DNA of 64,000 nucleotides from Alphaproteobacteria bacterium (GTDB lineage Bacteria > Pseudomonadota > Alphaproteobacteria > Rs-D84 > SZUA-605): contig JAVBPW010000002.1 in the NCBI GenBank assembly GCA_031549385.1, positions 17,841-81,840 of the forward strand, given 5' to 3'. This document shows positions 7,361-44,918 of this stretch, piece after piece. The translations under genes and the position numbers were made by a program. The stretch's first letter is position 1. The number at the start of each line of letters is the position of its first letter. The notes beneath the pieces were generated by a model. The model made no database searches, was not told the origin of the DNA, and worked only from the letters and a program-made list of their open reading frames with translations.

Positions 7361-7460
7361 TCAGTTGCGATTCAAAAGGATTAAAAATTCGTTCACAATC
7401 ACGTAGCGTTAGTACGCTCATGCGAACTCACTTTTAATACTTTTGTTCTCACTTGATTAT
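7358..7460 (+). repeat. palindromic intergenic element, copy 2
   Basis: Core CACAATCACGTAGCGTTAGTACGCTCATGCGAA, flanked by complementary arms (TAATCAGTTGCGATTCAAAAGGATTAAAAATTCG versus ACTCACTTTTAATACTTTTGTTCTCACTTGATTA). Fills the gap between convergent xth and comEC. Confidence 0.7.
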
Positions 7461-7490: not shown

Positions 7491-9128
7491 TTATTTTATT
7501 TTTTCTAATGATTCATTTCTGTTAAAGAAATAAATTAATGCAGCTACACAACCAAATGATAATTGAAAGCCAACATTAAATAATGAATATGGGGAAATGA
7601 GCAATATTATAAATGCTGAAATGGCTAAATTGTTTAATGAAATTCCACGTCGGTTTAAAAGAATTGCTATTAATCCTATTGTTGTCATTATGAATGTTCG
7701 CTGAATTGGTACTGCACTTCCTGAAATAAAAAAATATGCTAAAGTTATAAAAAATGTTATTACCGCTGCTATTTTCTTTGTGTCTTTTAATTGAGAATTT
7801 GAAATTAATAATAGGCTATATCTGAAAATGAAAAAGCAAATAATAGTCAATAGTCCCATGTGGAAGCCAGATACTGATAGTAAGTGAGAAATACCAGCTT
7901 GCTTAAATGAATTGTCTGAGTCTTCTGGCATTGCATAACGTTCGCCTGTTATTAATGTCGTTGCAAATAAGCGCTCTTCTTTATTTTCACCTTTTAACAT
8001 TTTTTTTATTAACCCATAGCGAAACTTTTCTATTTTTTCTTTTGGATTTAATGGAGGAGTGTCTATTATTTCTATGCCACTGTCTATGTATCCAACTGCG
8101 TCTATGTTTTTATAGTATGCATAAGTTTTGAAATCAAAACCATGCTTGGTTGATTTATTTGATAATGGAAATAATGTTGCTCTGAAGCAAATATTTTGGC
8201 CTATATCTAAGTTTTCATGATTTTCATTTACTTTTAAACGAATCCTTTTTACGTATTGGATACCGTCTTTGTTTAAAGCTTTTAAATTGTTTAAAACTAA
8301 ACGTCTTGATTTATCCATTACTTGAATTTGTTCTATATGAGCTTCAAAGTCTTTTTTAAATACTGGGTATCTTAAAAATTCTCTTTTGTTTAATACTGTG
8401 TGAAGATACATTGTTGATATACCTAACGCAAAAGATAATATCAAATAACCAAAAAATGTAGCAGGGCGATATTTAAAGCTTGGTAGGTATGGAATTTTAT
8501 GATTGTGTTTATATTGTCTTGGAAAGAGTATTCTTTTTAATCCTTGTAAATTGTATTTATCTAATAATTTTATTGTATATTTTGTTAGTTTCTTTTTTAT
8601 GGATTTTAAACTTTCTATAAATTTTCTGAAATAAAAGAATGGTTGTGAAAGCATTTCCATTAAATATTTAAATGGAGTACTGTTTGTTAGCCATTTCAGT
8701 GGTAGAATAGAAAAGAAACCTCTTACCATTGACCATAAAATTCTGAATAATGTGCCTGACATGAAGTATCTTAAATATGAGAATACTTTTAAAACTATGG
8801 TAATTGAGAATATCAAAGCAAACAATTGTGAGAATAATGGTAATAATATTAACAAGAATAAGAATTTTAAAATTTTAAAGAAAACAAATTTAATTATTTT
8901 CATTGGTGTTAGTAAGTTATATCTTAATATTACTTTTCTTATTGTGTTTGAAAAAAGACTGCAAATAAATAAAAGTAAACAAAGAATTATTATAGCATAA
9001 ACAAAAAATGTTTTTAGTTTGAAGAAGATTGCTATACCTAATGCAAAAAAAATTATTAGCAAAAGGGGAAAGTTTTGTTTTTCCCCATTTGCAAAGTTTG
9101 ATAATTTTCTTGTTAGATGTTTAATCAT
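7491..9128 (-). CDS. comEC: ComEC/Rec2-family DNA internalization channel, short form
   Basis: 545 aa. Very hydrophobic N-terminus, OB-fold-like segment (IRLKVNENHENLDIGQNICFRATL), competence-domain motif GISHLLSVSGFHMGLL. No metallo-beta-lactamase domain. Confidence 0.75.
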   Translation of the reverse strand: MIKHLTRKLSNFANGEKQNFPLLLIIFFALGIAIFFKLKTFFVYAIIILCLLLFICSLFSNTIRKVILRYNLLTPMKIIKFVFFKILKFLFLLILLPLFSQLFALIFSITIVLKVFSYLRYFMSGTLFRILWSMVRGFFSILPLKWLTNSTPFKYLMEMLSQPFFYFRKFIESLKSIKKKLTKYTIKLLDKYNLQGLKRILFPRQYKHNHKIPYLPSFKYRPATFFGYLILSFALGISTMYLHTVLNKREFLRYPVFKKDFEAHIEQIQVMDKSRRLVLNNLKALNKDGIQYVKRIRLKVNENHENLDIGQNICFRATLFPLSNKSTKHGFDFKTYAYYKNIDAVGYIDSGIEIIDTPPLNPKEKIEKFRYGLIKKMLKGENKEERLFATTLITGERYAMPEDSDNSFKQAGISHLLSVSGFHMGLLTIICFFIFRYSLLLISNSQLKDTKKIAAVITFFITLAYFFISGSAVPIQRTFIMTTIGLIAILLNRRGISLNNLAISAFIILLISPYSLFNVGFQLSFGCVAALIYFFNRNESLEKIK

Positions 9129-9869
9129 TTAGAATCTCATCATACCGCCATTTACGTGTATTGTTTGACCTGTTATATATTCAGCTTCAGTTGATGCTAA
9201 ATATAATGCTGCATAAGCTATATCTTCTGGTCTTCCAAATTTTTGTGATGGAATTTGATTCATCATAACTTCTTTTATTTCAGGTGAAAGTACATCTGTC
9301 ATCTTTGACATTATAAATCCAGGTGCAATTGCATTTACTGTTACATTTCTTCTTGCAAATTCCATTGCTAAAGTTTTTGATAATCCAATTAAACCTGCTT
9401 TTGATGCTACATAGTTTGCTTGTCCTGCGTTACCCATTACACCTACGATTGATGAGATATTTATAACTCTTCCATAACGTCTTTTTGACATTCCAGCAAT
9501 TACTTGTTGTGTTAATTTAAATACTGCAGTTAGATTAACATTGATAACTTCATTCCATTCTTCGTCTTTCATACGCATTGCAAGAGTGTCTCTTGTTAAT
9601 CCTGCATTGTTTACTAGGATATCAATCTGTCCTGTTAATTCTTCTGCTCTTTTTGCAAAATCTTCAATACCTGGTAAGTTGCCTAAATCAAAATTTAGTG
9701 TAAAAACTCTTTCTTTTAATTCTTCTTTAATAGATTTTAGAGCTTCTTCATTTCTTCCAGTTATTATTACTGTTGCTCCAGCTTGGTGTAGAGTTTTTGC
9801 TATTGCAAGTCCTATCCCAGAAGTTGATCCTGTTACTAAAGCTGTTTTACCAGTTAAGTCAAAAAACAT
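9129..9869 (-). CDS. fabG: 3-oxoacyl-ACP reductase (SDR family)
   Basis: TGSTSGIGLAIA cofactor motif, NNAG, and catalytic S...YVASKAG typical of FabG. The stop abuts the comEC start. Confidence 0.85.
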   Translation of the reverse strand: MFFDLTGKTALVTGSTSGIGLAIAKTLHQAGATVIITGRNEEALKSIKEELKERVFTLNFDLGNLPGIEDFAKRAEELTGQIDILVNNAGLTRDTLAMRMKDEEWNEVINVNLTAVFKLTQQVIAGMSKRRYGRVINISSIVGVMGNAGQANYVASKAGLIGLSKTLAMEFARRNVTVNAIAPGFIMSKMTDVLSPEIKEVMMNQIPSQKFGRPEDIAYAALYLASTEAEYITGQTIHVNGGMMRF

Positions 9870-9933
9870 TATATTTTCCTTTTTTAAAGTTAATTTATTG
9901 TGATTTTAATGATTTTTTTTGCTTTTTCAATCT

Positions 9934-11013
9934 TTACATTTGTTGTGTCAATTGTTCTTGCATTTCAAATGTTCCAAAGATAACCCAAGCTATTACCACA
10001 GCAATTAAAAGGATTGCAACGGAGTTCAAAATATTAGCAATTGATTCAATTTTTTTAATAGAGTCTTCTAAGAACCCGTCTGCTACATTTTCTAATGCTT
10101 CTTCGAAATTATCAAGTTCCGAATAAATTTGTAAGTCGCCTATTAATTCAGTATCTGGAAAGTTTTGTTTACTTAGATATAAAGCGTTTCCTAAGTTTTC
10201 TCCTTCAGAAACAAATGATAATACTTTTCCTATTCTGTCTGCTAGGTATGGAGATGAATTGTCTTTTAAAATTCCTAATGCTTTTGATATAGGTGTTCCT
10301 GATTTTACAAGTGATGATAAAGATAGTAACCAAGATACTCCTGTAAACATTCTGTATAATGACCATGGTGGAAATTTATCAAATATTACTCTGAATCTGT
10401 TTGTCCAAATTGGCATTGTAATAGCTATTGCTGCTACGATTACAATTATTACTATTGGAAATAACCACCAATATAGTGCCATAAAATCTGATACTCCTGC
10501 AAGAGTTAATGCAGTACCTGTCCATATGATTTTTTTACCAGCAGCTTCTGTTAGTGGTGGAACCAAATATAAACTTACCATAATTAAAATTAAGAATACT
10601 AAAACAAGCAAAAATAATGGATAAGCAAATGCGCTTATAATTGGGCCTATGATTCTTGATGATCCATCTGATACTTTTATAACGTGAACTAATGCTTTTT
10701 CTAAACGAGCTACATCACCAACTGTTAACATCAACTTTTCACGAGCTGGAACCCAATTGCCTAATGCATCTCCAAAAGTTTCTCCATTTTCTAATCCTCT
10801 TTGCCATGATGAAATTGCTATTGCCATAGGTTCAGATGGCTTTTTACCATTTACTGATGCAATATTCCATAATCTGTCTAATGATGCCATAAGAGTAAAA
10901 TTATTGCGTAATAGGGCAGCTAGTTTTTTATAAAATTTCAAACGTTCTGTGTTTGAACTTTTAACCATAAATTTTGCGTATGCTAAATTTAAACTTTGAA
11001 GTGATAATGCCAT
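9934..11013 (-). CDS. GspF/PilC-family inner-membrane platform protein (R64 PilR-like)
   Basis: 359 aa, polytopic, with two GspF-like cytoplasmic segments. Its start overlaps the stop of the upstream GspE-type ATPase. Confidence 0.75.
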   Translation of the reverse strand: MALSLQSLNLAYAKFMVKSSNTERLKFYKKLAALLRNNFTLMASLDRLWNIASVNGKKPSEPMAIAISSWQRGLENGETFGDALGNWVPAREKLMLTVGDVARLEKALVHVIKVSDGSSRIIGPIISAFAYPLFLLVLVFLILIMVSLYLVPPLTEAAGKKIIWTGTALTLAGVSDFMALYWWLFPIVIIVIVAAIAITMPIWTNRFRVIFDKFPPWSLYRMFTGVSWLLSLSSLVKSGTPISKALGILKDNSSPYLADRIGKVLSFVSEGENLGNALYLSKQNFPDTELIGDLQIYSELDNFEEALENVADGFLEDSIKKIESIANILNSVAILLIAVVIAWVIFGTFEMQEQLTQQM

Positions 11014-12671
11014 TAGAAAAGCTCCTTTTCATCTAAGAATCCACACCAACGTTCTACATCGTCAATTGATACTAATCCTTTTAACATTTTTTCTATTGCA
11101 TATTCTCTAAGAGAAACTCCACCAAGCTCTTTTTTCCAATATTCAATTGCTTCGTCTGTTTTTCTTTCTAAGGCTAGGCCTAATAGTTTTGCGTCAGGAA
11201 GAATTATTTCAAATACTCCAATACGACCTGTTACACCTTTACCTTTACATACATCGCAACCTGGTCCTTTTGTATATGCCATGTCTGCTTTTTGTTGGCC
11301 TATTGTTTTTAAAGCTCTTCTGTATGCTGGATTATCTGTTGCACCTCTTAATGATTTTTTGCAATTAGGGCAAAGTCTTTTAAATAATCTTTGTGATACT
11401 AATCCTTTCATTAAAGATGCATCGCCTAATTTAAAATCTTCTACACCCATATCAAGAAGACGAGTTAAAATTGCTATCGCAGAATTAGCGTGAAGTGTTG
11501 TCCAAACGTTGTGACCTGATAAAGCTCCACGGAATGTTAAATCCGCTGCTGATTTTGTTCTGATTTCTCCAACCATCATTGCGTCAGGGTCTGAACGAAG
11601 AGCAGCTGCAAGAGCAGATGTAAACGCTGCATCTTTTTCTTCTTCTGTTGCAGTGTTTGTCACAGGCATTTGGCGTGATCCTGGAATAGGGTATTCAGGT
11701 GGATCTTCCACTGTGATTAAATTTATTTCATAATTTCTTTCTTTTAACATTAGAATCATGTTTTGTTGTAAAGTAGTAGATTTTCCAGATCCTGTTGGAC
11801 CAGCTATGATACATAATCCTGTTGGAAAGCTACGCATTTTGTAAAATAATTCTAATTGATGTGGTTCTAATCCTAAAGTTTCTAATCCTCTTCCTGCATC
11901 TTGGCTTGCATACAAAAGTCGCATAACCAAATATTGAGAACCAAAGGCTATTGGATTGAATTGTAAACGTATAGCTAATACATTTCTTGGAAGATATAAA
12001 TCTTTTGAACCACGTAGTGGAGTATCTCCTAATTTTTGTGCTGCTTGGAATTCATTTTGAGCATAGTTTGAGTCAGATATATCAGCAGATGCAAATACAG
12101 AACGTACAAATGCTTCACCCCATGTGCCATCAAATTCCATCATCTTTTGCATTGTACCATCCATTCTGAAAAGAATTGTTGTTTCATTTCCTACAATTAC
12201 GTGAATATCTGATACTCCGCGTTCTGCTGCTTTTGAAACTATATCTACATAGTCTTTTTGAATTTGATTATTAAACGCGTCTAAATTAGGAATTAAATTT
12301 TTCTTTTTTAAATTTTCTTTGTAGATTTCATTTAAATTTCCAAGAGAAGTATATACAGTGCTTGTTATTTTATTTTTTGTTTTATTAAGTAATGAAACAA
12401 AACTTAAAACTTGTCCATCATATTTATGAGTGTTTGAAATTACTAATGTTCCATCTGAAAAATATGCTAAAATGTTTTTTGTTTCATGATTTAATGCTAG
12501 CTTTTCACCTGTATCTGTTAGAAGGCGATTGTTTGGAACAAATAATGTTTTGATTAATTCTGCGGCAGTAATTTCACGTGCTACAGTTTTTGGTTTTTCT
12601 GTTGCAGGTTTTGCAGCGTCTGTTTTTGTAACAGGTTGTGCTGGTGTAATAGGTGTTTTTTGTTCTGCCAT
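11013..12671 (-). CDS. GspE/PilB-family assembly ATPase (R64 PilQ / TcpT / BfpD-like)
   Basis: Walker A GPTGSGKST, Asp box, Walker B, His box TLHANSA, and the tetracysteine CPNC...CDVC cluster. Confidence 0.9.
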   Translation of the reverse strand: MAEQKTPITPAQPVTKTDAAKPATEKPKTVAREITAAELIKTLFVPNNRLLTDTGEKLALNHETKNILAYFSDGTLVISNTHKYDGQVLSFVSLLNKTKNKITSTVYTSLGNLNEIYKENLKKKNLIPNLDAFNNQIQKDYVDIVSKAAERGVSDIHVIVGNETTILFRMDGTMQKMMEFDGTWGEAFVRSVFASADISDSNYAQNEFQAAQKLGDTPLRGSKDLYLPRNVLAIRLQFNPIAFGSQYLVMRLLYASQDAGRGLETLGLEPHQLELFYKMRSFPTGLCIIAGPTGSGKSTTLQQNMILMLKERNYEINLITVEDPPEYPIPGSRQMPVTNTATEEEKDAAFTSALAAALRSDPDAMMVGEIRTKSAADLTFRGALSGHNVWTTLHANSAIAILTRLLDMGVEDFKLGDASLMKGLVSQRLFKRLCPNCKKSLRGATDNPAYRRALKTIGQQKADMAYTKGPGCDVCKGKGVTGRIGVFEIILPDAKLLGLALERKTDEAIEYWKKELGGVSLREYAIEKMLKGLVSIDDVERWCGFLDEKELF

Positions 12672-12672
12672 T

Positions 12673-13695
12673 TTAATTTTGCTTCATTTTTAATGGGTAT
12701 AATTTTTTACCTTTTTCAAAAACTATTCCATCTTGTGGAGATATAGAGCGAACTATTATTCCATCTCCTATTGTTGTTCCTTGACGAACAGTTATTTTTT
12801 TGTTTTGTGGTATATTTAATAAAGTTGCTGTTAAATTTCCACCAATTCCCATAATGCTTTTAATTTCATACACAGATGTTACTTCAAATGTCTTAGAAGA
12901 ATCTTCTGGTTGAACTGGAGTGCTTACTTCTGATACATATGATGGACCTGCATCAGATGGTGCTGAACTTACTGATTCAGAACTTTCTGCACTTACTTGT
13001 TCAAGTTTTCTGATTTCATTATCTAATTTCAATTGGTCTCTTTTTAATTTAGATAATTCAAGTTCCATCTGTTTGTGTTTTGTTTCTAAATCAAGTACAA
13101 ATTTTTCATTTTCAAGTTCTGAAAGTTTTGTAAATAATGAGTCTGAAAAATCTAATGATAGTAATGGATGTAAATATTTTGAATCTGATGGAATTACTAT
13201 TAATTCATTTTTTTCAACTACATCAACAGGTTGTCCATTTATACTTGGAGCAGCTGAAGAATTTGTGAATTGTTCAAAAGGTATATTTGTTGGCTGAACA
13301 GGTTGTTCAGGCATAGGTTGTGGTTGTTGTGGAGCTTCAACAAAAGGAATAGGTTGTTCCTCCATTGGTTGTGGAGCAGGTTCAACAGCTGGTGCTGGTT
13401 GTATTTCTGGAGCAGGCTGAACAATTGGAGCAGGTTGAACTTGAGGTTCATCTGGAAATACTTCGTTTTGTGCAAGAGATGATAATATTTCTTGTTTTTG
13501 TGGGTCTTGCTCTACATATAGTTCATCTTCTGGAATATCTTCGTTTGTGATGTCTACTGATAATGGCATATCGTCCATTAAATCAATTGGTTCTGATGGT
13601 GCAGGCATTGATACGTTAATTTCTTCTTGTGCAGATAAACGACTAGACGCGCATATTACTGCTATTAAAAAAAACAATATACTAATCTTTTTCAT
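12673..13695 (-). CDS. PilP-like type IVb pilus biogenesis protein with a long Pro-rich/coiled-coil insert
   Basis: Signal peptide. PAPxxQP repeats (PAPIVQPAPEIQPAPAVEPAPQP), a coiled coil, and a C-terminal PilP-like beta domain (IKSIMGIGGNLTATLL...RQGTTIGDGIIVRSISPQDGIVF). Confidence 0.55.
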   Translation of the reverse strand: MKKISILFFLIAVICASSRLSAQEEINVSMPAPSEPIDLMDDMPLSVDITNEDIPEDELYVEQDPQKQEILSSLAQNEVFPDEPQVQPAPIVQPAPEIQPAPAVEPAPQPMEEQPIPFVEAPQQPQPMPEQPVQPTNIPFEQFTNSSAAPSINGQPVDVVEKNELIVIPSDSKYLHPLLSLDFSDSLFTKLSELENEKFVLDLETKHKQMELELSKLKRDQLKLDNEIRKLEQVSAESSESVSSAPSDAGPSYVSEVSTPVQPEDSSKTFEVTSVYEIKSIMGIGGNLTATLLNIPQNKKITVRQGTTIGDGIIVRSISPQDGIVFEKGKKLYPLKMKQN

Positions 13696-15019
13696 AAACA
13701 CGCCCTTCAACCTTCCATGTCTGAGACTTTTGATCCCAAACTATTTCTTTAAACTCAGCACTTCCTATTGACCTAAATAGCTTTGCCCACTCTATTATAT
13801 CCAATTTTGAGTTAAAAGTAAACTTCATAAATGAAAATTTTTTAATAATATTTCCATTTATCGCTTGGTCTTCTAAAAATTCAGTCTGAATTTTGATTGA
13901 AGTTCGTTGAGAAAAGGCTAAAAACCTCTTCTTTACTATATCTTTTGGTTCTGTTGGAGCTATACTTACCTTTGTAAATTTTGGTTGTGATATTGAAGTT
14001 GATACATTTTCTCCGTTATCGTCAAATTTTACATTAACATTGCCTAAGATTGGTTTGAAATATTTATCAAACGCTTTTGAAATTATAGAAATATCACCTT
14101 GATTTCTTGTGTATGATGCTTCTATAGTTGTTGGATTACATGTAATAGTTTTTAAATCCCATCCAAATATTGGTTTTGAATATAGAGATACTGCCTTTTT
14201 ACAAATTGCAGCAAATTCTATTATATCATCCATTTCTTGCCATGGAAGAGTTGGGTCTTTTTGTTTTACTATTAAAGGTTGCTCAGGTTGAACTGTTGCA
14301 GAAGTTCCTGGAGCTGTTTGTACAGTTTGTCCTTCAGGTTGACCTTTATCTAATTTTTCTGGCTTATACTTTTCAAGTAATGCAGAATCTTGTTTAGGCT
14401 TTTTTGGAGCAGGGCTTATTAATCTTAATAAAGAGTTTTTATATACTAATGCTATAAATAAAACAAAGATAGAAATCAAAATTATGTTTTGAAGAGTTGA
14501 TTGTTTTTTTAATGGCAATAATCTTTGATAGCTTTCTCTTTCAAATAATTCTTCTATTGTTGTTGGTGATGAACCATCAACTCTCCATTCAACTGGTGCG
14601 ATTTTATATGCCCAATCTGGAAGTTCTAATAATTTTAAATAATGTGCTTTTGCTTCATCTTCTGTTTCAAATAATGCATCATCTTCTGGTAAGATAAGTC
14701 CGTTTCTTACTGCACATAACCAATAACCTTGTTGTGTTTTTAAACAAGATAAAATTGATGGTTTGTCTTTTAATACTGATGTTAATGAAATAGCTGCTAC
14801 AAATTGTTTATCTCTGTGACCTAGTTCACGGAATGCTAGTCCATATTGAGCATTACCAAATGTTTTTATGCAATAATAGTTTGCTTGTGGGACTAATGAC
14901 TTTGATGTTTTTTCTATTTCAAGAAGAGGGTTCTTCTTGTCGTTTAATGGTTGCCAAAAAAGTCCTACTGCGTAAGACTTATTGGCAACTATTATAACTT
15001 GTTTAAAGTTCTTGTTCAT
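13682..15019 (-). CDS. PilO-like (type IVb, PilO2-type) bitopic membrane protein
   Basis: 445 aa. N-terminal AVGLFWQPL motif, a single central TM helix, and a position between the secretin and PilP-like genes, as in R64/ICE pil operons. Confidence 0.5.
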   Translation of the reverse strand: MNKNFKQVIIVANKSYAVGLFWQPLNDKKNPLLEIEKTSKSLVPQANYYCIKTFGNAQYGLAFRELGHRDKQFVAAISLTSVLKDKPSILSCLKTQQGYWLCAVRNGLILPEDDALFETEDEAKAHYLKLLELPDWAYKIAPVEWRVDGSSPTTIEELFERESYQRLLPLKKQSTLQNIILISIFVLFIALVYKNSLLRLISPAPKKPKQDSALLEKYKPEKLDKGQPEGQTVQTAPGTSATVQPEQPLIVKQKDPTLPWQEMDDIIEFAAICKKAVSLYSKPIFGWDLKTITCNPTTIEASYTRNQGDISIISKAFDKYFKPILGNVNVKFDDNGENVSTSISQPKFTKVSIAPTEPKDIVKKRFLAFSQRTSIKIQTEFLEDQAINGNIIKKFSFMKFTFNSKLDIIEWAKLFRSIGSAEFKEIVWDQKSQTWKVEGRVYEKD

Positions 15020-15054
15020 ATTTCCCCTTCACAATATGAAGGAACTACCAATCT

Positions 15055-16629
15055 TTAGTAGGTTGGTGTTCCCCAAGCTTCAGAATGTCTTTCTTCTGGA
15101 TCAAGTGGGGATGCTATGATTTGTGGTGTTATCATGATAACTAGGATATTTCTTTCACTTATTGTTTCTCGTCCCCCTCCAAGAGTCATAAAGTTAGGAT
15201 CACCTACACCATATCTTGTATCTGAATTATTACCTTTTTCGAATCCAGTTAATATCAATGTTTGACCTGATTTTAACACAGCTTCTTGTAAGAATGATCT
15301 TTCTTCAATTCTTGGAAGTTGTAAGTCAATATTGTTGATAGTCATCTTATCGAAGCCTAATAATTCTCTTAAAGACATTTTAAACATTAATAGTAATCTT
15401 CCATTTTCAAAAATGTTTGGTAGAAGTTGTAAGTTAAAACCTACATTTTCTTCTTTAGGTTCTACACCTGTTTGACCTTGATTTTGAGTGAATTCACTAA
15501 TTTCAATCTTATCAATGTATTTAAATGTTTGTGTGTTGTTAACTGGAGCAACTCTGTTATTACGTGTTGTTACAGTTGCTGTTGTTACTACAGAAATTTG
15601 ACCTTGTTTTGCAAGTGCTTGGATAGCTGCAGATGTTCCAGAGAAGTCTTCAAGAGCTCCTGTTCCATTTACAATAGCCATGTTTCCACTTTGCATAAAT
15701 GGTGTTTGTGAGAATGGATTCCTGTATGATCCGTTACCTGTTCCAAGTTCAAGTCCAGCTGTGTTTTTGAAAAGTAAATTTAAGTCTAATCCTACAGTGT
15801 TACTATCGTTAATTGTAACTTGTAAAACTCTTACAGTAATAGATACCATTTTTGATAATCTTCTGTTCTTTTCTTTTACATATTGGCTTACTTTTTCAAT
15901 TGTTGCAGGTGTTCCTGTTACGGTGATTGTTCCTGTTGAAACTGCAACTGTTGCTCCACCATCTGGAACTAATGTTGCTAATTCAGTTTTAATATCATTC
16001 CATTCATCTAATTCAATATTTGTTGTTAGAGAATCGCCTGTTTCACCTTTTTTACCAAGTGACATATTTGAATTATATGATGACTTTGTTGCAAGTGAAT
16101 AGATAGTAAATGTTTTTGTTAACTTTTTGAACATAGTAATTTTACGTCCATCATAATACCAATTTACTCCTGTTTCTGTTCCGATTTTATTTAAAAGACC
16201 AGAAAGGGTTCCTGTATATGATAGTTCCATAGAATCCATATTTTTTGGATCAACAGAATCGTCAAAATCAATTAAAATGTCTGTCAATGCAGTTATTTGA
16301 TTTGCAATATCATTTAATTTTTCTTGCTTGTCTGTTACAATTGTTATTCCTAATGGAGTTTCTAATCTCTTAGGTAATGGTTCTCTGTTTTTTCTGTTTA
16401 CAGATTGATTTCCTAACCAGATGTCTTTTGAAACTTCAACTGTGTCATATTTCAATTGCTTTGCAGGATTTTTTGCACGTTCTAAATTTTCTGCAGCTTC
16501 TTTGTATTGATCAGCAACTTCTGTGTTTACTGACTCAGTTGCCTGAGGATCGCAAGAACACATAAAGAACACTGAAGAAATTACTAGTAAAGAAGTTACT
16601 AATTTATTTTTATTAATCTGCATTTTCAT
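15055..16629 (-). CDS. secretin, lipoprotein type (R64 PilN / BfpB-like)
   Basis: Signal peptide with Cys (FFMCSCD). C-terminal secretin domain (VTTRNNRVAPV..., GFNLQLLPNI..., RNILVIMITPQII). Confidence 0.85.
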   Translation of the reverse strand: MKMQINKNKLVTSLLVISSVFFMCSCDPQATESVNTEVADQYKEAAENLERAKNPAKQLKYDTVEVSKDIWLGNQSVNRKNREPLPKRLETPLGITIVTDKQEKLNDIANQITALTDILIDFDDSVDPKNMDSMELSYTGTLSGLLNKIGTETGVNWYYDGRKITMFKKLTKTFTIYSLATKSSYNSNMSLGKKGETGDSLTTNIELDEWNDIKTELATLVPDGGATVAVSTGTITVTGTPATIEKVSQYVKEKNRRLSKMVSITVRVLQVTINDSNTVGLDLNLLFKNTAGLELGTGNGSYRNPFSQTPFMQSGNMAIVNGTGALEDFSGTSAAIQALAKQGQISVVTTATVTTRNNRVAPVNNTQTFKYIDKIEISEFTQNQGQTGVEPKEENVGFNLQLLPNIFENGRLLLMFKMSLRELLGFDKMTINNIDLQLPRIEERSFLQEAVLKSGQTLILTGFEKGNNSDTRYGVGDPNFMTLGGGRETISERNILVIMITPQIIASPLDPEERHSEAWGTPTY

Positions 16630-17284
16630 CCTCCAATGTTTTTACAACTAATACTTTGTTTCCGAAGTAGAACTTTGCATATGGAGGAGGTGATGCTCTT
16701 CCAAATGATCTTACTAATGCTGATGCTACGTCAGTAAATCTTCCTTTAAATATAGCAGACGCTTTTAAAGGATATTCTCTGTTTGTACTCCAAACAATTT
16801 CCCATCCTTCAAGAGTTGCCCATTCTTCGATAATTTCACGAACTGTTTTTCCATCTTTTGCAACCCATTCGCGAATCATGTCAGGACGATATTCTTTTTC
16901 GCCTTCCATTTGTGATACACCATATTCGTTTATAGTATATACTTCTTGTTCGCTAATCATTGGTGCTACTGGAGCGTTAGATCCAGAAAGAGTTTGATAT
17001 CCATTGTTTTCAATTAATTTAACATTAGATAATTTCATAACACTATCTTCTTCACCATTAATTAAAAAATTATCAGGAGGTGTAAGAGATGCTCCACCAC
17101 TCCATCCATCAGTTGGTGCGTTATTCATATCTTGAGCAGCATGTCCACCAAAATTTAGTGTTTTGTTTTGTGAATAATAATCAGCTTCAGAGCCAATCAA
17201 AGGCCAAGCTGGTGGTGTGTCTGAATCTGCAAATGCAGGGACACATAATAGTGCACAAATAGCAATAATAATTTTGAATTTCAT
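16613..17284 (-). CDS. PilL/TcpQ-domain periplasmic protein
   Basis: Signal peptide. C-terminal segment GKTVREIIEEWATLEGWEIVWSTNREYPL...FKGRFTDVASALV...FGNKVLVV resembles the TcpQ/PilL domain. Overlaps the secretin start by 17 nt. Confidence 0.5.
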   Translation of the reverse strand: MKFKIIIAICALLCVPAFADSDTPPAWPLIGSEADYYSQNKTLNFGGHAAQDMNNAPTDGWSGGASLTPPDNFLINGEEDSVMKLSNVKLIENNGYQTLSGSNAPVAPMISEQEVYTINEYGVSQMEGEKEYRPDMIREWVAKDGKTVREIIEEWATLEGWEIVWSTNREYPLKASAIFKGRFTDVASALVRSFGRASPPPYAKFYFGNKVLVVKTLEDENAD

Positions 17285-17408
17285 TTATTTCCTTCCCCTA
17301 TAAGTCCTTAACTAGTTCCATTTATAAACATATATCTTTATAATTTCAAGAGAAAAATGTAATTCAGATTACTTTAAGTGATAAAGAAATAAAAAGTTTT
17401 ATATAATA

Positions 17409-19541
17409 CTATTTTTTCATCAAAAATATTGGTAGTGGAGATGGTTGAGGAATCGCAGCTTTCTCTTTTAATTTGTCATCTTTAAACCATAATGGTGTTT
17501 CTGCTTCAATTGGATAATCCATTTCACCTTGAATTAATACATAATGTTTTCCAAATCCTATGTTTAGCATATCTTTTGCAGATATAATTCTGCTTTTAAC
17601 CATATTCTTTTCTGTTTCAACTGTATTTCCTTTTTCAGTTTTTTCATTCCAGATTTCATCCCAACCTTTTTTGAATTTGTTTTCAATATCTGTCATGTGA
17701 CCTACTAGTTTTTCGAATCTTTCAGCTGCTTCATTATTGTTTTGTCTAAATATGATTTTTGCTGCTGTATTTGATATCATTGTTTCTACTGCTTCTTTTC
17801 CATATCGTTCTTCAATTTGATTTAAATCTTGTCCAATTAAAAGATATGATACTTTTTGTCCACGACCAATTGCAGGTCCGTTTATAACTGCGTCTAATTT
17901 TGGCATTTGTGGAAATTCGTCAAGTACAAATAATGTTGGGAATGGTCCCATTTTTCCATCACGTTCACTTGTTGAATCTGGTTTGTTTGTTATTAAATAA
18001 CGTGACATTAATTCTATAAAGATAGCAGAGATTTTTCCTAGTGCTACTGCGTCTGTTTGGTTTACACTTAAATAAACAGTTACAGGTTTCATTTTTCCAT
18101 CACGAGGGTCTATCATTCCTCTTAAATATTTAAATTTAATATCATTGCGCATTGTTCTTTGACGAACAGCTTCGTTGTTGAAAATATTTATTTCTGTTAA
18201 GAATGTTGATATAACTGATGCTCTTTCTTTGTCACCTGCATTTGCTAGTTTTGTTAGTTCTTGAATTGCACGACGGGAGTAATTAAAACGTTGTCCTTCT
18301 TTTACTAAACTTTGTAAAATTTCTTTCATTGCGTCTGTTTGACCTGCACTATAATCACCCATTTCTTTTCTTTTATTTATTGCGTCTGCAGTTTTGATTT
18401 GAAGATTTGTTATTAAGTCTAACATCATTGGAAAACAAGCTTCTTTGCCTGTCCATTCTTGTGGAATATTATCCCATGTTCCAACTGGTACAAAATTTGA
18501 TGCATTTAATTTTCCTTCACGAAGAAGTACTAATGCACCTGATGCTAGGTTATCAACCATAGACATATAATATGAAGCTAATAATCTTGCATCTTCTGTA
18601 TCAAATGTGTGGTCTTGCATTCTTTTTAAGAAGTAATCACTTGCTCTTGCTCTTTCACATTTTGATACTATTAAATGTACGAATCCTGTTAAGGCATTTC
18701 GGCCTGCTATTGACCAATATGTGTCACCTTTAGTATTTGATTGAATCATTACGTTTACCATTGATTCTACATACATATCTCTTTCTGGTCCAAGTGGTGG
18801 AATACTATCTGGGGCTAATGGATTCCATGATGGGTAAAAAATTCCTTTTTGTGGGTCGTCTTGTTTTCCCCAATCTATTGTAAATGATACTCCTATTTTT
18901 CCACGGTATCCTGAAGTCATTTCAGAAAGTTCTGGCTTTGGGTCGTTTACTATCATACTTACGGTATCATTTTCAAATAATGTTGCTGCCACAATACCGG
19001 CTGATTTTCCAGTTCCTGGAGGAGCAAAACAAAGTACAGAAAATGTTTCGTTTAATTTTATGTATGTCTTTTTTATTTTTCCAAGAACAAATATGAATCC
19101 ATCTTTTACTATTTTCATGTTTTTAACATCATCTTCAGTTGCTTTATGTCCATCGCCATATGCTTTTACATATTTTTTGTATGGATTTAATTTTCCTATA
19201 AAATATTTTGCTACTGGAGCTGTGAAAAGTGGAAGGAATATTATTCCATGAAACATATCTGGAGCTGTAAAAAATGATGGGAGCCATACATATAAATAAT
19301 AACGGAAGATTTCTAATCCACCTGTTTTTACAATTTCTTCCATATATCTTGAAAATAAAATAGGAAAGTTGTTATCAAAACCATTGCGAGCTAAATATTC
19401 TGCAGGGATTGCAAAAATACAAGCTATGTAAACTAAAACATAGTAAAGAGTCCAGGCTTTTATTCTCCAAATAATGCTCTGGGTCTTTTCTTTGCTTTTT
19501 TTATCAAATGATTTTTCAAATCTTTTTTCAATTAGTGCCAT
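17409..19541 (-). CDS. VirD4/TraG-family type IV coupling protein
   Basis: 710 aa. N-terminal TM helices, Walker A FAPPGTGKSAG, Walker B-like LFVLDEFPQMPKL, and overall TraG/VirD4-like layout. Confidence 0.75.
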   Translation of the reverse strand: MALIEKRFEKSFDKKSKEKTQSIIWRIKAWTLYYVLVYIACIFAIPAEYLARNGFDNNFPILFSRYMEEIVKTGGLEIFRYYLYVWLPSFFTAPDMFHGIIFLPLFTAPVAKYFIGKLNPYKKYVKAYGDGHKATEDDVKNMKIVKDGFIFVLGKIKKTYIKLNETFSVLCFAPPGTGKSAGIVAATLFENDTVSMIVNDPKPELSEMTSGYRGKIGVSFTIDWGKQDDPQKGIFYPSWNPLAPDSIPPLGPERDMYVESMVNVMIQSNTKGDTYWSIAGRNALTGFVHLIVSKCERARASDYFLKRMQDHTFDTEDARLLASYYMSMVDNLASGALVLLREGKLNASNFVPVGTWDNIPQEWTGKEACFPMMLDLITNLQIKTADAINKRKEMGDYSAGQTDAMKEILQSLVKEGQRFNYSRRAIQELTKLANAGDKERASVISTFLTEINIFNNEAVRQRTMRNDIKFKYLRGMIDPRDGKMKPVTVYLSVNQTDAVALGKISAIFIELMSRYLITNKPDSTSERDGKMGPFPTLFVLDEFPQMPKLDAVINGPAIGRGQKVSYLLIGQDLNQIEERYGKEAVETMISNTAAKIIFRQNNNEAAERFEKLVGHMTDIENKFKKGWDEIWNEKTEKGNTVETEKNMVKSRIISAKDMLNIGFGKHYVLIQGEMDYPIEAETPLWFKDDKLKEKAAIPQPSPLPIFLMKK

Positions 19542-19673
19542 ACACCCCTCGTTATATGGATATTTATGTTTCTTTTGTATGATAACCTACTTTCCAAAAA
19601 AAAGAAAGAAAATATTTGCATAACGCATTTGTTTATGCTACAATTACTTATATTTAATAAAGGAGTTTTTGAA

Positions 19674-20012
19674 ATGAATAAAAGATTTTTGCCATTTTTC
19701 GCACTATTAGGAATATTTGGTTTATGTGCTGTGTTGCCAGCAGATGCTTTTGCACAAGCTGCAGTTTTGGCTAAACAAGCAGGTAATGTTTTTAAAAATA
19801 TTAGAACATTAGTTTATATTGCAGCTGCTATTGCTATTATATGGCAAGGTGCAGATATGATTATGAATGGTGGAACAGCTATTAATTGGGCGCCAATAAG
19901 AGGTATTGCTTATGGTCTTATTCTTGTTTATGCAGCAAGCTGGATTGTACAAGGTTTAGTTGCTCTTACAGGTGGTGGCAATGAAGGCGGTATAATCGGA
20001 GCTAATTTCTAG
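19674..20012 (+). CDS. VirB2/TrbC-like small pilin-type membrane protein
   Basis: 112 aa from ATG 19674 (AAAGGAG 8 nt upstream). Signal peptide ending AFAQA, two hydrophobic helices, C-terminal ALTGGG tail similar to VirB2. Confidence 0.45.
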   Translation: MNKRFLPFFALLGIFGLCAVLPADAFAQAAVLAKQAGNVFKNIRTLVYIAAAIAIIWQGADMIMNGGTAINWAPIRGIAYGLILVYAASWIVQGLVALTGGGNEGGIIGANF

Positions 20013-20033
20013 AAATAGAATTTTAAAAAATAA

Positions 20034-20061
20034 AATCCCCTGACAAAAAGGGGATTTTTTT
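20034..20061 (+). terminator. intrinsic terminator
   Basis: AATCCCC-loop-GGGGATT hairpin followed by a T-run. Confidence 0.7.
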
Positions 20062-20117
20062 GTTTGCATTTGCAAGTTTTTTTATTAACCTTATAACTTA
20101 TAAAAAAGGAGACTTTT

Positions 20118-21272
20118 ATGACTACATTAAATAATGAACAACGTTTTAATATTATCACTCGTAATTTAGAAGAAATTATTGGCGAGGATGATTTACGATA
20201 TATGTTGGATAGTGGAGCTCCTATTAATCACTATATAGGTTTTGAAATTTCTGGAAAGCCTCATATTGGACAGGCTTTGATTGTTATGCAAAAAGTTAAA
20301 GATTTAATGGACGCAGGGGTTAATGTTAATTTCTTGCTTGCTGATTTGCATACATACTTAAATGGAAAGCTTAATGGTGATATGAAGTTAATTGCTGAAG
20401 TGAGAGATGGTTACTTTACTGAAATTATTAAAGCTTCAATTATGATGCTTGGAGGGGAACCTGAAAAATTAAACTTTATTAAAGGTGGGGAATATTATGC
20501 TGCCCATCCTGATTACTGGACCACATTTTTAGAAATTTCTAAAAACACTACACTTGCTCGAATTGAACGTTCTATTTCTATTATGGGAAGAACAGATGGT
20601 GAATCTCAAGACTTTGGAACATTGTGTTATCCTCCTATGCAAGCAGCTGATATTTTTGCGATGAAAATTAATATTGTTCAAGGTGGAATTGATCAAAGAA
20701 AAATTCATGTGGTTATGAGAGATGTGGCTAAATATATTAAAACTAATGCGCCTGAATTTAATGGAAAATTTTTAAAGCCAGTTGCTATTCATACTCCACT
20801 TTTACCTGCGCTTGATGCCCCAGCTGTTTGGCCATTGCCTGAAGGTTGTGATATGAAGCAAATGCAAATAGATATGAAGATGAGTAAGTCTAAACCTGGT
20901 GGAGCTATTTATATCGACGATGAACCAGAAAAAATTAAGAAAACTATTATGAAAGGTTTTTGTGCTGAAAAAGAAATTGAATATAATCCTATTTTAGAAT
21001 GGGTTAAAATGATTGTGTTCGATAGAGATGGGAAGGAAATTACTATTGTCAGACCAGAACAATATGGTGGAAATATTTCTTTTAAAGATTATGAAGATTT
21101 GAAAAAGAAATTTGCTGATGGTTTGGTGCATCCTATTGATGTGAAAAACTTTTTGGCAGATTACTTAATAAATCTTTTTGCACCAGCGAGAGAACATTTT
21201 GCAAAATCTCCGTATAGGGAAATGAAAGCAAGGACAGAAGAAATTTTAGAATCAGTTAAAAAGAAGAGATAA
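20118..21272 (+). CDS. tyrS: tyrosine--tRNA ligase, archaeal/eukaryotic type
   Basis: Aligns by eye with M. jannaschii TyrRS (YIGFEISGKPHIGQ, LLADLHTYLN, GGIDQRKIH, KMSKSKP). Confidence 0.85.
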   Translation: MTTLNNEQRFNIITRNLEEIIGEDDLRYMLDSGAPINHYIGFEISGKPHIGQALIVMQKVKDLMDAGVNVNFLLADLHTYLNGKLNGDMKLIAEVRDGYFTEIIKASIMMLGGEPEKLNFIKGGEYYAAHPDYWTTFLEISKNTTLARIERSISIMGRTDGESQDFGTLCYPPMQAADIFAMKINIVQGGIDQRKIHVVMRDVAKYIKTNAPEFNGKFLKPVAIHTPLLPALDAPAVWPLPEGCDMKQMQIDMKMSKSKPGGAIYIDDEPEKIKKTIMKGFCAEKEIEYNPILEWVKMIVFDRDGKEITIVRPEQYGGNISFKDYEDLKKKFADGLVHPIDVKNFLADYLINLFAPAREHFAKSPYREMKARTEEILESVKKKR

Positions 21273-21276
21273 TGGG

Positions 21277-21398
21277 ACGCGTTGAAAATGGGCTGTAAAC
21301 AAAAAGAAATGAAAATTACCAAACAATCACGTATGTTTAATACGCTCATGCTTGGAAATTTTAATTTTTTTCGTTTTCGTTCCATTTTGAACGGTCGT
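21277..21398 (+). repeat. palindromic intergenic element, copy 3
   Basis: Core AACAATCACGTATGTTTAATACGCTCATGC. Arms ACGCGTTGAAAATGG...ACCAA and TTGG...CCATTTTGAACGGTCGT are complementary, with compensatory changes relative to the other copies. Confidence 0.7.
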
Positions 21399-21416
21399 GG
21401 ATAATAAGGATAAGAT

Positions 21417-22832
21417 ATGATAGGGAAAGTGAAAGTATTTAATACTATGACAAGAAAGGTAGAAGATTTTGAGCCAGTACATGCTGGAAAGGTTGGGTTT
21501 TATTCTTGTGGGCCTACTGTTTATTCTGAACCTCATATTGGGAATACTAGAGCTGCTTTGTTTGCTGACTTGTTAAAGAAAATGTTAGTACTTGCAGGAT
21601 ATGATGTTAAACATGTTATGAATATTACTGATGTAGGACATTTAGTTGGTGATAGTGATGATGGTGAAGATAAAATAGAAAAAGAAGCTTCTGCTAAAGG
21701 AATAACTGCAAAAGATATTGCTGAAAAATATACTAAGATATTTTTTGATTATACTTCTGTTTTAAATATTAATATTCCTGATGTTGTTGCTAAAGTTACT
21801 GACCATATTCCAGAACAAATTGATTTTATTAAAGTATTGGAAGAAAAGGGTTTTACCTATCAAACATCTGATGGAATTTATTTTGATACTTCAAAATTAA
21901 ACGATTATGGTAAATTGGCAAAACTTGATATTGAAGGTTTGGAAGCTGGATCAAGAGTTGATGTAGGTGAAAAGAAAAATTTAACTGATTTTGCTTTGTG
22001 GAAGTTTTCTCCATCAGATGGAGCTAAGAGACAACAAGAATGGAATAGCCCTTGGGGTGTTGGTTTTCCTGGTTGGCATCTTGAATGTTCAGCATTATCT
22101 TTAAAATATTTAGGATTTCCTTTTGATATTCATTCTGGTGGGTCTGATGCTATACCAGTTCATCATACTAATGAAATAGCTCAAAATGAAGCATACTGTG
22201 GATGTAATAGTGTTAAATATTGGATGCATGTAGGAATGCTTATTATGCCAGGGGGGGCTAAAATGTCTAAATCTCTTGGGCATAAGCAAACAGTTAAAAC
22301 TGAACTGTTAGATAAGGGTATTGATCCGCTTGCTTATAGATATCTATGTTTGACTGCTCATTATAGGTCGCAAATGATATTTTCTGAGGAAGCTTTAAGA
22401 GATAGTGCAACTGCATTGAAAAGATTACAAGCTAAGGCTTTGAAGATTAAAGAAGAAGCTAAAGATAGTACTACAGTTGGAGAAATAAGTGAAGGGGTTC
22501 AAGGTTTTTGCAAAAGAATTTCAGATGCTTTATTTGATGATCTACAAACTCCTAATGCTTTAGTTGCTTTCCGTGAAGCTTTGGATAGTGATATTTCAAA
22601 TGTAGAAAAGCTATATATTATTGAACGATTTGATTCTGTATTTTGTTTGGATCTTTTAAAAGAAAAAGCAGAATTGGAAATTCCTCAAGAAGTACAAGAT
22701 TTGCTTGAAAAACGTCAAATTGCACGTGCTAATAAAGATTTTAAGGCTTCTGATGAGTTGAGAGATAAGATTGCAGCGCTGGGGTTTGTTGTTAAGGATG
22801 GAAAAGATGGGCAAACTGTAGAAAAGATTTAA
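21417..22832 (+). CDS. cysS: cysteine--tRNA ligase
   Basis: HIGN (HIGH-type) and KMSKSLG motifs. Length and layout match CysRS. Confidence 0.9.
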   Translation: MIGKVKVFNTMTRKVEDFEPVHAGKVGFYSCGPTVYSEPHIGNTRAALFADLLKKMLVLAGYDVKHVMNITDVGHLVGDSDDGEDKIEKEASAKGITAKDIAEKYTKIFFDYTSVLNINIPDVVAKVTDHIPEQIDFIKVLEEKGFTYQTSDGIYFDTSKLNDYGKLAKLDIEGLEAGSRVDVGEKKNLTDFALWKFSPSDGAKRQQEWNSPWGVGFPGWHLECSALSLKYLGFPFDIHSGGSDAIPVHHTNEIAQNEAYCGCNSVKYWMHVGMLIMPGGAKMSKSLGHKQTVKTELLDKGIDPLAYRYLCLTAHYRSQMIFSEEALRDSATALKRLQAKALKIKEEAKDSTTVGEISEGVQGFCKRISDALFDDLQTPNALVAFREALDSDISNVEKLYIIERFDSVFCLDLLKEKAELEIPQEVQDLLEKRQIARANKDFKASDELRDKIAALGFVVKDGKDGQTVEKI

Positions 22833-43742: not shown

Positions 43743-44891
43743 ATGGCTTTTTCGAGAAATTTTCATATGACTATTAAACCTATTGGTGCAGCTTGTAATA
43801 TGAATTGTAAATATTGTTATTTTTTGAGTAAAATAAATTTATTAAATAGTTTTTCAAGAATGTCCGATGAAACATTAGAAAATTTTATTAAATCATATAT
43901 TCAAGCTCAAGATTCTGATGTGGTGTTTTTTACTTGGCATGGAGGAGAACCTACATTACTTGAAATAGATTTTTTTAGAAAAGTAATAGAGTTTCAAAAA
44001 AAATATTCCAATGGAAAATATATAGAAAATGATTTACAAACAAATGGATTATTAATTGATGATACTTGGTGTAAATTCTTAAAAGAAAATAATTTTTTAA
44101 TTGGTTTATCTGTTGATGGAGATGAAAATGGAAACTCTTATCGTCAAGATAATAATGGAAATTCAGTTTTAAAGAAAACTATAGAAGTTGCAAAATTACT
44201 GAAGAAATATAATATTCCTTTTAATACATTAACTGTTATAAATAATAAAAATTCTAAGCGACCTGTTGAAACTTATGAATTTTTAAAAAATATTATTGGA
44301 TCTAATTATATGCAATTTATTCCAGCTGTTGAAATTAAAGATCATGAAAATACAGCTCCAGGATTTTGGAAGGAAAAAATTGAATTAGAAGAATATTCAG
44401 TGTCCCCTGAAGATTGGGGTAATTTTTTAACAGAAGTTTTTAATAATTGGTACGAAAATGATAAAGGAAAAGTATTTATCTTTCTTTTTGAAAATTTTTT
44501 ATCCTTATATTTAAATCGTGGACCTCAGATGTGTTTTTTTGAAAAAGAATGTTCACATGCTATGGCAATTGATAGAGATGGTTCTGTTTATGCTTGTGAT
44601 CACTTTGTTTATCCAGAGTACAATTATGGAAATATAAATGATTTAAATTTAAATGAAATAGCTTTATCTGAAAAAAGGAAAAATTTTGCCAAATTAAAAT
44701 CAAATTTGCATGAACAATGTTTGAATTGTGAATGGTTAAATTTGTGTAATGGAGAATGTCCAAAGAAAAGATTCCTAAAAACTTCTGATAAAAATGTTGG
44801 ATTAAATTATTTATGTGAAGGATATAAAATTTTCTTTGCAAAAACAAAGAAAAGGATGTTGAATTTATCTAAATTATATGATAATGTTTAG
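43743..44891 (+). CDS. anaerobic sulfatase-maturating enzyme (radical SAM/SPASM)
   Basis: CNMNCKYCY radical-SAM cluster and C-terminal Cys-rich SPASM region. Immediately upstream of a Ser-type sulfatase. Confidence 0.85.
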   Translation: MAFSRNFHMTIKPIGAACNMNCKYCYFLSKINLLNSFSRMSDETLENFIKSYIQAQDSDVVFFTWHGGEPTLLEIDFFRKVIEFQKKYSNGKYIENDLQTNGLLIDDTWCKFLKENNFLIGLSVDGDENGNSYRQDNNGNSVLKKTIEVAKLLKKYNIPFNTLTVINNKNSKRPVETYEFLKNIIGSNYMQFIPAVEIKDHENTAPGFWKEKIELEEYSVSPEDWGNFLTEVFNNWYENDKGKVFIFLFENFLSLYLNRGPQMCFFEKECSHAMAIDRDGSVYACDHFVYPEYNYGNINDLNLNEIALSEKRKNFAKLKSNLHEQCLNCEWLNLCNGECPKKRFLKTSDKNVGLNYLCEGYKIFFAKTKKRMLNLSKLYDNV

Positions 44892-44918
44892 TATAAATTG
44901 TTTTCATAGGAGGGAGAC

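Follow-up and report, generated by a model that had tools for sequence, protein, structure and literature searches.

Type IVb pili are known companions of type IV secretion systems (T4SSs): in the IncI2 plasmid TP114 and in PAPI-1 they serve the T4SS by stabilising mating pairs (PMC9045228, PMC5297154), and the pairing is established for IncI and PAPI-1-type conjugation systems (PMC9045228, PMC5297154, PMC6232867). The pilus clusters of IncI1 R64, IncI2 TP114, PAPI-1 and SPI-7-type elements, as well as that of the Thalassospira xiamenensis plasmid NZ_CP004389, contain the same gene families in the same order as a locus that we analyzed at positions 7491–20061 of a 64-kb stretch of DNA (contig JAVBPW010000002.1; hereafter the window) from an uncultured, low-GC Alphaproteobacterium, and here, as there, pilus genes lie beside type IV secretion genes. 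The locus joins a type IVb pilus (pil) operon to genes for a VirD4/TraG-type coupling ATPase and a TrbC/VirB2-family protein. We consider it probable that these genes belong to a vertically inherited partnership between a VirB/D4-type T4SS and a type IVb pilus, whose genes have become dispersed in the lineage of the window. Both the components and their pairing are already known; for lineage-wide chromosomal fixation of such a pair with a dispersed, non-canonical gene set, no description was found in the literature. An earlier first-pass annotation of this DNA knew of no description of the combination. Literature on orphan VirD4 with type IV pili, or on T4SSs of RF32-type Alphaproteobacteria, yielded nothing specific.

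Nine consecutive minus-strand open reading frames (ORFs) fill positions 7491–19541, and the gaps from virD4 to comEC measure 124, −17, 35, −29, 1, −1, 64 and 0 nucleotides (nt), in agreement with the head-to-tail arrangement and the largest gap of 124 nt given in the first-pass annotation. The operon structure of the block was read from gene spacing alone; promoter-like sites occur in it at chance level (60 observed versus 61 expected). All ten family calls of that annotation are backed by Pfam and NCBIfam profile searches, although weakly in the case of PilP. The pilus core consists of the following genes (lengths in amino acids, aa):

16613–17284, minus strand: secreted protein with a TcpQ domain, 223 aa (PF10671, 61.3 bits), first gene of the pil core, in a PilL/TcpQ-like position
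15055–16629, minus strand: PilN-type type IVb secretin, 524 aa (PF00263, 55.9 bits; TIGR02520, 253.6 bits)
13682–15019, minus strand: PilO-type (PAP_PilO/PilO2) assembly protein, 445 aa (PF06864, 56.1 bits versus a cut-off of 26.7)
12673–13710, minus strand: PilP-like protein, 345 aa (weak TIGR03021 match; signal peptide, linker rich in Pro and Gln)
11013–12671, minus strand: GspE/PilB-type assembly ATPase in the R64 PilQ position, 552 aa (PF00437, 232.9 bits; CxxC...CxxC motif)
9934–11013, minus strand: GspF/PilC-type inner-membrane platform in the R64 PilR position, 359 aa (PF00482, 74 bits)

The R64-like L-N-O-P-Q-R order is borne out, with the TcpQ/PilL-like protein, PilN, PilO, the PilP position, GspE and GspF being colinear. 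For the secretin, the best NCBIfam match is PilN type IVB (TIGR02520), with its 253.6 bits lying under the equivalog cut-off of 287.65, and the closest plasmid relatives are type IVb secretins including BfpB (~27–28% identity). The TIGR03021 match of the PilP-like protein is weak (27.2 bits, under the cut-off of 34.65). Colinear with the window genes is also the order on the Thalassospira xiamenensis plasmid, TcpQ-PilN-PilO2-x-ATPase-GspF-major pilin, a cluster that has genes for a prepilin peptidase and a PilT-like ATPase ahead of it, lies beside T4SS genes and encodes proteins 23–32% identical to those of the window (32% for the TcpQ-domain protein; PilO2 is matched by the window PilO in tblastn).

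We compared the block with 80 genome loci centred on the pilus ATPase, drawn from 80 species-level genomes out of 261 matches, with 80 metagenome loci centred on VirD4, and with several single contigs. Both proteins have hundreds of relatives in metagenome-assembled genomes (MAGs) of uncultured Alphaproteobacteria, many of them from animal or human gut samples. Some of these MAGs carry the label ‘Rickettsiales bacterium’; membership of the lineage in Rickettsiales is uncertain, database labels being the sole evidence. The ATPase-centred loci fall into two sub-clades, ‘clade B’ (~60 loci, including Proteobacteria bacterium CAG:495) and the window’s own (L001–L011, L013, L014 and similar loci). 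Across them, the order tcpQ-pilN-pilO-(pilP)-pilQ-pilR is intact in 68/80 loci, and the other 12 are clipped by contig ends yet consistent with it. The TcpQ-domain gene is present in 70 of the 80 loci and PilO keeps its position in 76; the ATPase has orthologues of 54–67% identity in 80 loci, directly followed by the GspF-type platform gene in 77, and a gene of similar size occupies the PilP slot in all relatives examined. Between the window and L001, identity amounts to 50–68% for TcpQ, PilN, PilP, PilQ and PilR and to 36% for PilO.

Beyond this common core, clade B is richer in pilus genes than the window. Downstream (3′) of pilR it carries a gene of ~200–230 aa, at least one prepilin whose signal is of the G|xSMVE type and, in many of the loci, a PilT-like ATPase, features shared with the conjugative type IVb clusters, where a PilS pilin is likewise added. 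In L022, for instance, the prepilin matches PF08805 PilS and Bundlin, and the next gene encodes a 332-aa T2SSE ATPase. Altogether, PilS-family prepilins (PF08805/Bundlin) follow shortly after pilR in 51–55 of the 80 loci. The machinery had been called pilin-less from the window, a description that does not survive the comparison. Because relatives carry PilS prepilins just after pilR, the pil machinery is predicted to use ordinary type IVb pilins, whose genes, in the window’s lineage, would not lie in cis; most likely they are encoded elsewhere in the source genome. Upstream of tcpQ, clade B has a gene of ~550–650 aa that belongs to no family. The ~557-aa gene found there, in the slot of VirD4, was considered as a counterpart and rejected, as it has no relation to VirD4.

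The window itself is poor in such genes, as the first-pass annotation had stated: a class-III signal motif scan in all six frames of the 64 kb detected no prepilin, tblastn queries with VirB3, VirB4, VirB8–11, prepilin peptidase and pilins found no match in it, and neither integrase nor relaxase was among its Pfam-scanned ORFs. Unlike conjugative type IVb clusters, the pil locus of the window lacks genes for pilin, peptidase, PilT, PilM and PilV, and the system differs from plasmid clusters and those of integrative and conjugative elements (ICEs) in being chromosomal and vertically inherited lineage-wide, with no relaxase, integrase or shufflon seen. These points bear on whether the block could be a recently acquired fragment of an ICE or conjugative plasmid in the chromosome, a suggestion to which the gene families, typical of IncI/ICE conjugation regions, lend some colour. 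We regard this origin as extremely improbable, since the operon is kept in at least 80 species-level genomes amid housekeeping genes, plasmid homologues are only 23–35% identical, and both GC content and flanks are native. The whole window has ~30% GC, with 0.28–0.34 in the block versus 0.26–0.34 in the flanks, Pfam scans assign its remaining large ORFs to core, metabolic or surface functions, and no tRNA gene was found in the 64 kb. Core genes also occupy ~7 kb past the left end (an extension taken from another assembly), where tRNA, integrase and relaxase genes are again absent. The first-pass view that the composition is native and the block no recent ICE is thus confirmed by uniform GC, core-gene flanks and conservation of the pil core.

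The T4SS side of the locus begins with a gene transcribed divergently from virD4:

19674–20012, plus strand: TrbC/VirB2-family small membrane protein, 112 aa (PF04956, 30.3 bits versus a cut-off of 27.9)
20032–20058, no strand assigned: bidirectional terminator-like hairpin in the trbC–tyrS interval (10-bp stem flanked on either side by T runs)

The start of trbC is most likely at 19674 (MNKRF..., 112 aa) rather than at the mechanical ORF start at 19566. With this correction the divergent VirB2/TrbC-style gene of the first-pass annotation is upheld, the PF04956 threshold being passed narrowly. The protein has a signal peptide ending in AFA|Q, two transmembrane (TM) helices and a Gly-rich tail. 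A word-based homologue search with the protein returned the self match only. A sequence search of the PDB with the TrbC profile gave nothing significant, and Foldseek of a single-sequence AlphaFold model (helical, of low confidence; predicted local distance difference test, pLDDT, 67.6) found no significant match, with the pKM101 N-pilus pilin only at E = 8.6. In place of the word-based search we ran, over all loci retrieved, a hidden Markov model (HMM) built from the window protein and its counterparts in L001 and L164, the latter with two copies (Pfam TrbC). In most clade-B loci it picked up small homologous genes that lie upstream of the pil operon and point away from it. All 11 of 11 aligned members of the family match PF04956 (best E 4.7e-12). 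Their common features are two TM helices with a conserved Trp in the intervening loop, a Gly-rich tail, and a signal peptide ending in A-x-A|Q.

In clade B these genes lead into a T4SS operon with the order trbC, trbC, a 600–720-aa TrbC-like fusion, a 93–96-aa VirB3-like protein and an 810-aa VirB4 (PF03135; TIGR00929, 364 bits), and VirB3 and VirB4 were found by tblastn wherever clade-B sequence extends far enough. No virB3 or virB4 follows trbC in the window, unlike in clade B; tblastn detected no VirB4 in L001 or L164–L166 either, and neither Pfam and NCBIfam profiles nor tblastn recognised VirB6, VirB8, VirB9 or VirB10 in the window. Genes of pilus type and of T4SS type are linked non-randomly: trbC adjoins pil in at least 52 loci (tblastn), and more than one layout occurs. 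L033 and L064 instead have the VirB4 block on the downstream side of the pil operon, and this linkage, kept despite rearrangement, argues for a functional partnership of T4SS and pilus. Homologues of trbC furthermore adjoin virD4 in L164 and L001. The coupling protein had at first been called an orphan; that VirD4 and VirB2 are orphans working with pilus parts is not supported, as the sister-clade TrbC genes have VirB3-like and VirB4 neighbours and VirD4 usually lies far from pil.

The fusion gene was observed at L167 10001–12157, L168 10001–11815 and the left ends of L019, L043 and L046; it encodes a complete N-terminal TrbC/VirB2-like module, with signal peptide and two TM helices, followed by a long C-terminal extension. 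Downstream (3′) of clade-B VirB4 lie five or six genes for secreted proteins, apparently rich in coiled coils and of no recognised family (in L167 at 15105–22157).

The second T4SS component is the coupling protein:

17409–19541, minus strand: VirD4/TraG-type type IV coupling protein, 710 aa (PF02534, 163.7 bits; PF12696, TraG-D_C; PF10412, TrwB_AAD_bind)

Two TM segments lie at its N-terminus, and its ATPase motifs read PPGTGKS (Walker A) and DEFP (Walker B). In 30 orthologues at 43–77% identity, neither the Walker motifs nor ~90 further positions vary, so VirD4 is under selection. Aligned over 96% of its length, it shares 32% identity with VirD4 of the canonical VirB2-B11/D4 operon on the Erythrobacter aureus plasmid NZ_CP031358; within the lineage, identity to that protein is 32–35%, and the VirB4 proteins are 35% identical over their full length to VirB4 of the same operon. 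With this VirB/D4 (P-type) T4SS the sister clade shares the order B2, B3, B4. The lineage departs from it in that the genes are dispersed, with VirD4 never beside VirB4; that VirB2 is multiplied, with one copy being the 600–720-aa fusion; and that neither VirB6/8/9/10 nor a relaxase was recognised near VirB4, the window holding VirD4 and VirB2 only. Dispersal of this kind may have a parallel in the Rickettsiales vir homologue (rvh) T4SS, a chromosomal, vertically inherited VirB/D4-type system with duplicated components and genes split over several loci, in which virD4 sits with virB8–virB11. To our knowledge, no type IVb pilus partner of rvh is known.

The surroundings of virD4 vary widely. 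L001 alone among the relatives repeats the layout of the window, with trbC divergent from virD4 and VirD4 abutting tcpQ and the following pil genes. In L164, the closest relative (77% VirD4 identity), cysS, virD4 and two TrbC genes follow one another without tcpQ downstream; in L165, virD4 lies between murC and other core genes. A group at ~50% identity has VirD4 after recF, amid housekeeping genes, and a gut group at 43–47% identity has it in a conserved operon of its own. This gut-clade operon was observed at L120 5272–13250 (also in L097, L105, L111, L119 and L161). Upstream of VirD4 it encodes a protein with DUF6476, two proteins of ~320 and ~500 aa that are acidic, and two membrane proteins of ~160 and ~420 aa that are paralogues with a common ‘WNFD/WRFD’ motif, and downstream one protein of ~200 aa and one of ~150–175 aa; only DUF6476 has a Pfam family. 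An enrichment of pilins near VirD4 was considered and dismissed, as type IVb-like prepilin genes in 5 of 39 long loci are too weak for an association. Such prepilins, 1.4–4 kb from virD4 in a few loci unrelated to one another, were noted at L090 13645–14010, L120 16290–16853 and L092 ~7477.

From the gene identities, synteny and linkage patterns described so far we infer the partnership, its substrate and the location of the missing genes as follows. Genome rearrangement would have brought three things together in the block. The first would be a vertically inherited chromosomal type IVb pilus operon that assembles PilS-family prepilins, with the prepilins, the PilT-like ATPase and the prepilin peptidase of the source genome presumably encoded elsewhere. 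The second would be two components of a VirB/D4-type T4SS, the coupling ATPase VirD4 and the VirB2/TrbC pilin, whereas VirB3, VirB4 and the other genes of the T4SS have probably moved elsewhere or been lost in the window’s lineage. The third would be bystanders, the housekeeping gene fabG and a truncated comEC. On the IncI/PAPI-1 model, the retractile type IVb pilus would make and stabilise contact between cells, and the T4SS, fed by VirD4, would translocate a substrate, either DNA or protein effectors. Mechanistically, a partnership of the two systems like that in IncI plasmids and PAPI-1-type elements is most likely. The pair appears to be fixed in the chromosome of a large group of uncultured Alphaproteobacteria without the hallmarks of a mobile element, which points to a domesticated, contact-dependent transfer system for effectors or DNA in a widespread, unstudied group. 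For annotation, it follows that an apparently ‘orphan’ VirD4 or VirB2 and a ‘pilin-less’ pilus operon can reflect gene dispersal, and that sister clades resolve such cases.

Several observations weigh against this partnership. In the window’s sub-clade no prepilin follows pilR, and no VirB4 was seen near pil. PilS prepilins, prepilin peptidase, PilT and VirB3/VirB4 would have to be present in the source genome, of which the 64-kb window was covered. No relaxase was seen. The sister-clade T4SS is itself non-canonical, because VirB6, VirB8, VirB9 and VirB10 were not recognised by Pfam, NCBIfam or tblastn within ~7 kb downstream of VirB4 in L167 and L033; their genes could be divergent or located elsewhere. 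Finally, proximity of VirD4 to pil occurs in three lineages with differing layouts, adjacent in the window and L001 and 3.6 kb apart in L166, and such recurrence could reflect a functional tie more direct than a partnership.

The sparse gene content of the window’s sub-clade can also be read as decay, the T4SS and perhaps the pilins having been lost, virD4 and trbC being relics or re-used, and only the pilus operon, or nothing, still working. The lack of VirB3/VirB4 and pilins near pil in this sub-clade fits such a remnant, as does a gene order that is eroding: L164 is rearranged, comEC is truncated, and L166 has no tcpQ or secretin directly upstream of its remaining pil genes. This last locus (L166 1–6400) has a phosphofructokinase gene directly before pilO-pilP-pilQ-pilR, a 160-aa reverse-strand gene inserted before pilR, and virD4 3.6 kb downstream of pilR, beyond serS; its arrangement is a further sign of operon erosion in the window’s sub-clade. 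Decay of the system is nevertheless unlikely in our view, given that the nine ORFs are intact except for comEC, that the VirD4 motifs and further positions are invariant as described, and that the identity of the pil proteins between the window and L001 argues for continued selection.

The first-pass annotation had instead drawn all these genes into a single hybrid envelope-spanning machine, with the secretin, ATPase and platform of a type IV pilus joined by VirD4 and a VirB2-type pilin and coupled to ComEC for uptake or export of DNA. The lack of prepilin, VirB4 and relaxase in the window speaks for such a machine, but relatives have bona fide PilS prepilins, often with a PilT-like ATPase, in the same operon. 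The immediate neighbourhood of trbC, virD4 and pil in the window and L001, together with recurring pairwise links (trbC-pil in clade B, trbC-virD4 in L164, virD4 3.6 kb from pilR in L166), likewise favours it; against this, no pil gene occurs close to VirD4 in any of the 80 metagenome loci centred on it. That no VirB8–10 outer-membrane core was recognised near the VirB4 of relatives would also suit a hybrid, yet their TrbC genes lead into a VirB3-like gene and VirB4, the normal assembly partners of VirB2. With comEC truncated, separated from pilR by fabG and unlinked to pil in all relatives, we consider a hybrid machine very improbable. A related possibility is that the VirB-type system of the lineage has lost its own VirB7/9/10 outer-membrane core, none having been recognised beside VirB4 in any of the loci, and depends on the secretin and assembly complex of the co-inherited type IVb pilus as its conduit through the envelope. 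This too is very unlikely; if true, VirD4 and the VirB2-like proteins would feed a chimera of T4SS and type IV pilus, and DNA or effectors would be moved with no mobile element that bears a relaxase.

The proposed coupling to DNA uptake concerns the last two genes of the block:

9129–9869, minus strand: fabG (3-oxoacyl-ACP reductase), housekeeping gene (TIGR01830, 322 bits, above cut-off)
7491–9128, minus strand: 3′-truncated comEC, 545 aa (PF03772, 140 bits, positions 1–140 of 270; OB/DUF4131)

Competence systems, whether built from a type IV pilus and ComEC or, as in Helicobacter, from ComB and ComEC, offer a parallel insofar as the window has pilus and T4SS genes near comEC. The comEC of the window differs from theirs in being truncated, in following fabG and in being unlinked to pil in relatives. 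The first-pass annotation had listed it as short; it is not naturally so but breaks off in the middle of the Competence domain. The protein aligns only to residues 72–384 of the 673-aa ComEC of L119, and the two closest relatives that it has among 1.8 billion library proteins are 830–831 aa long and are aligned only up to their residues 554–555. Nearly all other matches listed have ~580–890 aa. Thus ~275–290 C-terminal residues present in relatives are missing, and the missing part lies nowhere in the 64-kb window. Neither gene keeps its place next to pil, with fabG adjacent to pilR in 0/80 related loci and comEC near pil in 0/80, so that this link is limited to the window; in relatives comEC follows lpxB. 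Because comEC is truncated and linked to pil only here, the linkage carries no weight, and the earlier step from ComEC to DNA uptake or export falls. Both fabG and comEC are bystanders and not part of the system, and nothing supports a role in DNA uptake.

The truncated ComEC has a hydrophobic, Lys-rich insertion of ~190 residues (~40–227), placed after the first TM segment and before the OB domain. The insertion is seemingly common to the 830–831-aa relatives, which are aligned from about residue 25, and typical ComECs of ~680 aa do not have it. The stop codon of comEC lies 130 nt from the convergent xth, and this spacer contains a short, relatively GC-rich stretch (7380–7440) without an Rfam match; Rfam returned no match anywhere in the 64-kb window.

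Elsewhere in the window, a 3665-aa ORF at 47397–58394 has many Chlamydia-PMP-type repeats and a C-terminal OmpA domain and is probably a huge surface adhesin. At 35007–42777, a PBP1C-type transglycosylase/transpeptidase comes after a bacterial alpha-2-macroglobulin of 1894 aa, the two ORFs overlapping by ~146 nt. An alkyl sulfatase at 28856–30865, and a radical-SAM/SPASM enzyme beside a 785-aa sulfatase at 43743–47276, are consistent with a gut lifestyle associated with mucin or host glycans. An ankyrin-repeat protein of 228 aa is encoded at 60055–60741; in host-associated bacteria, proteins of this kind are often T4SS effectors, and its presence together with the giant surface protein hints at a host-associated lifestyle.

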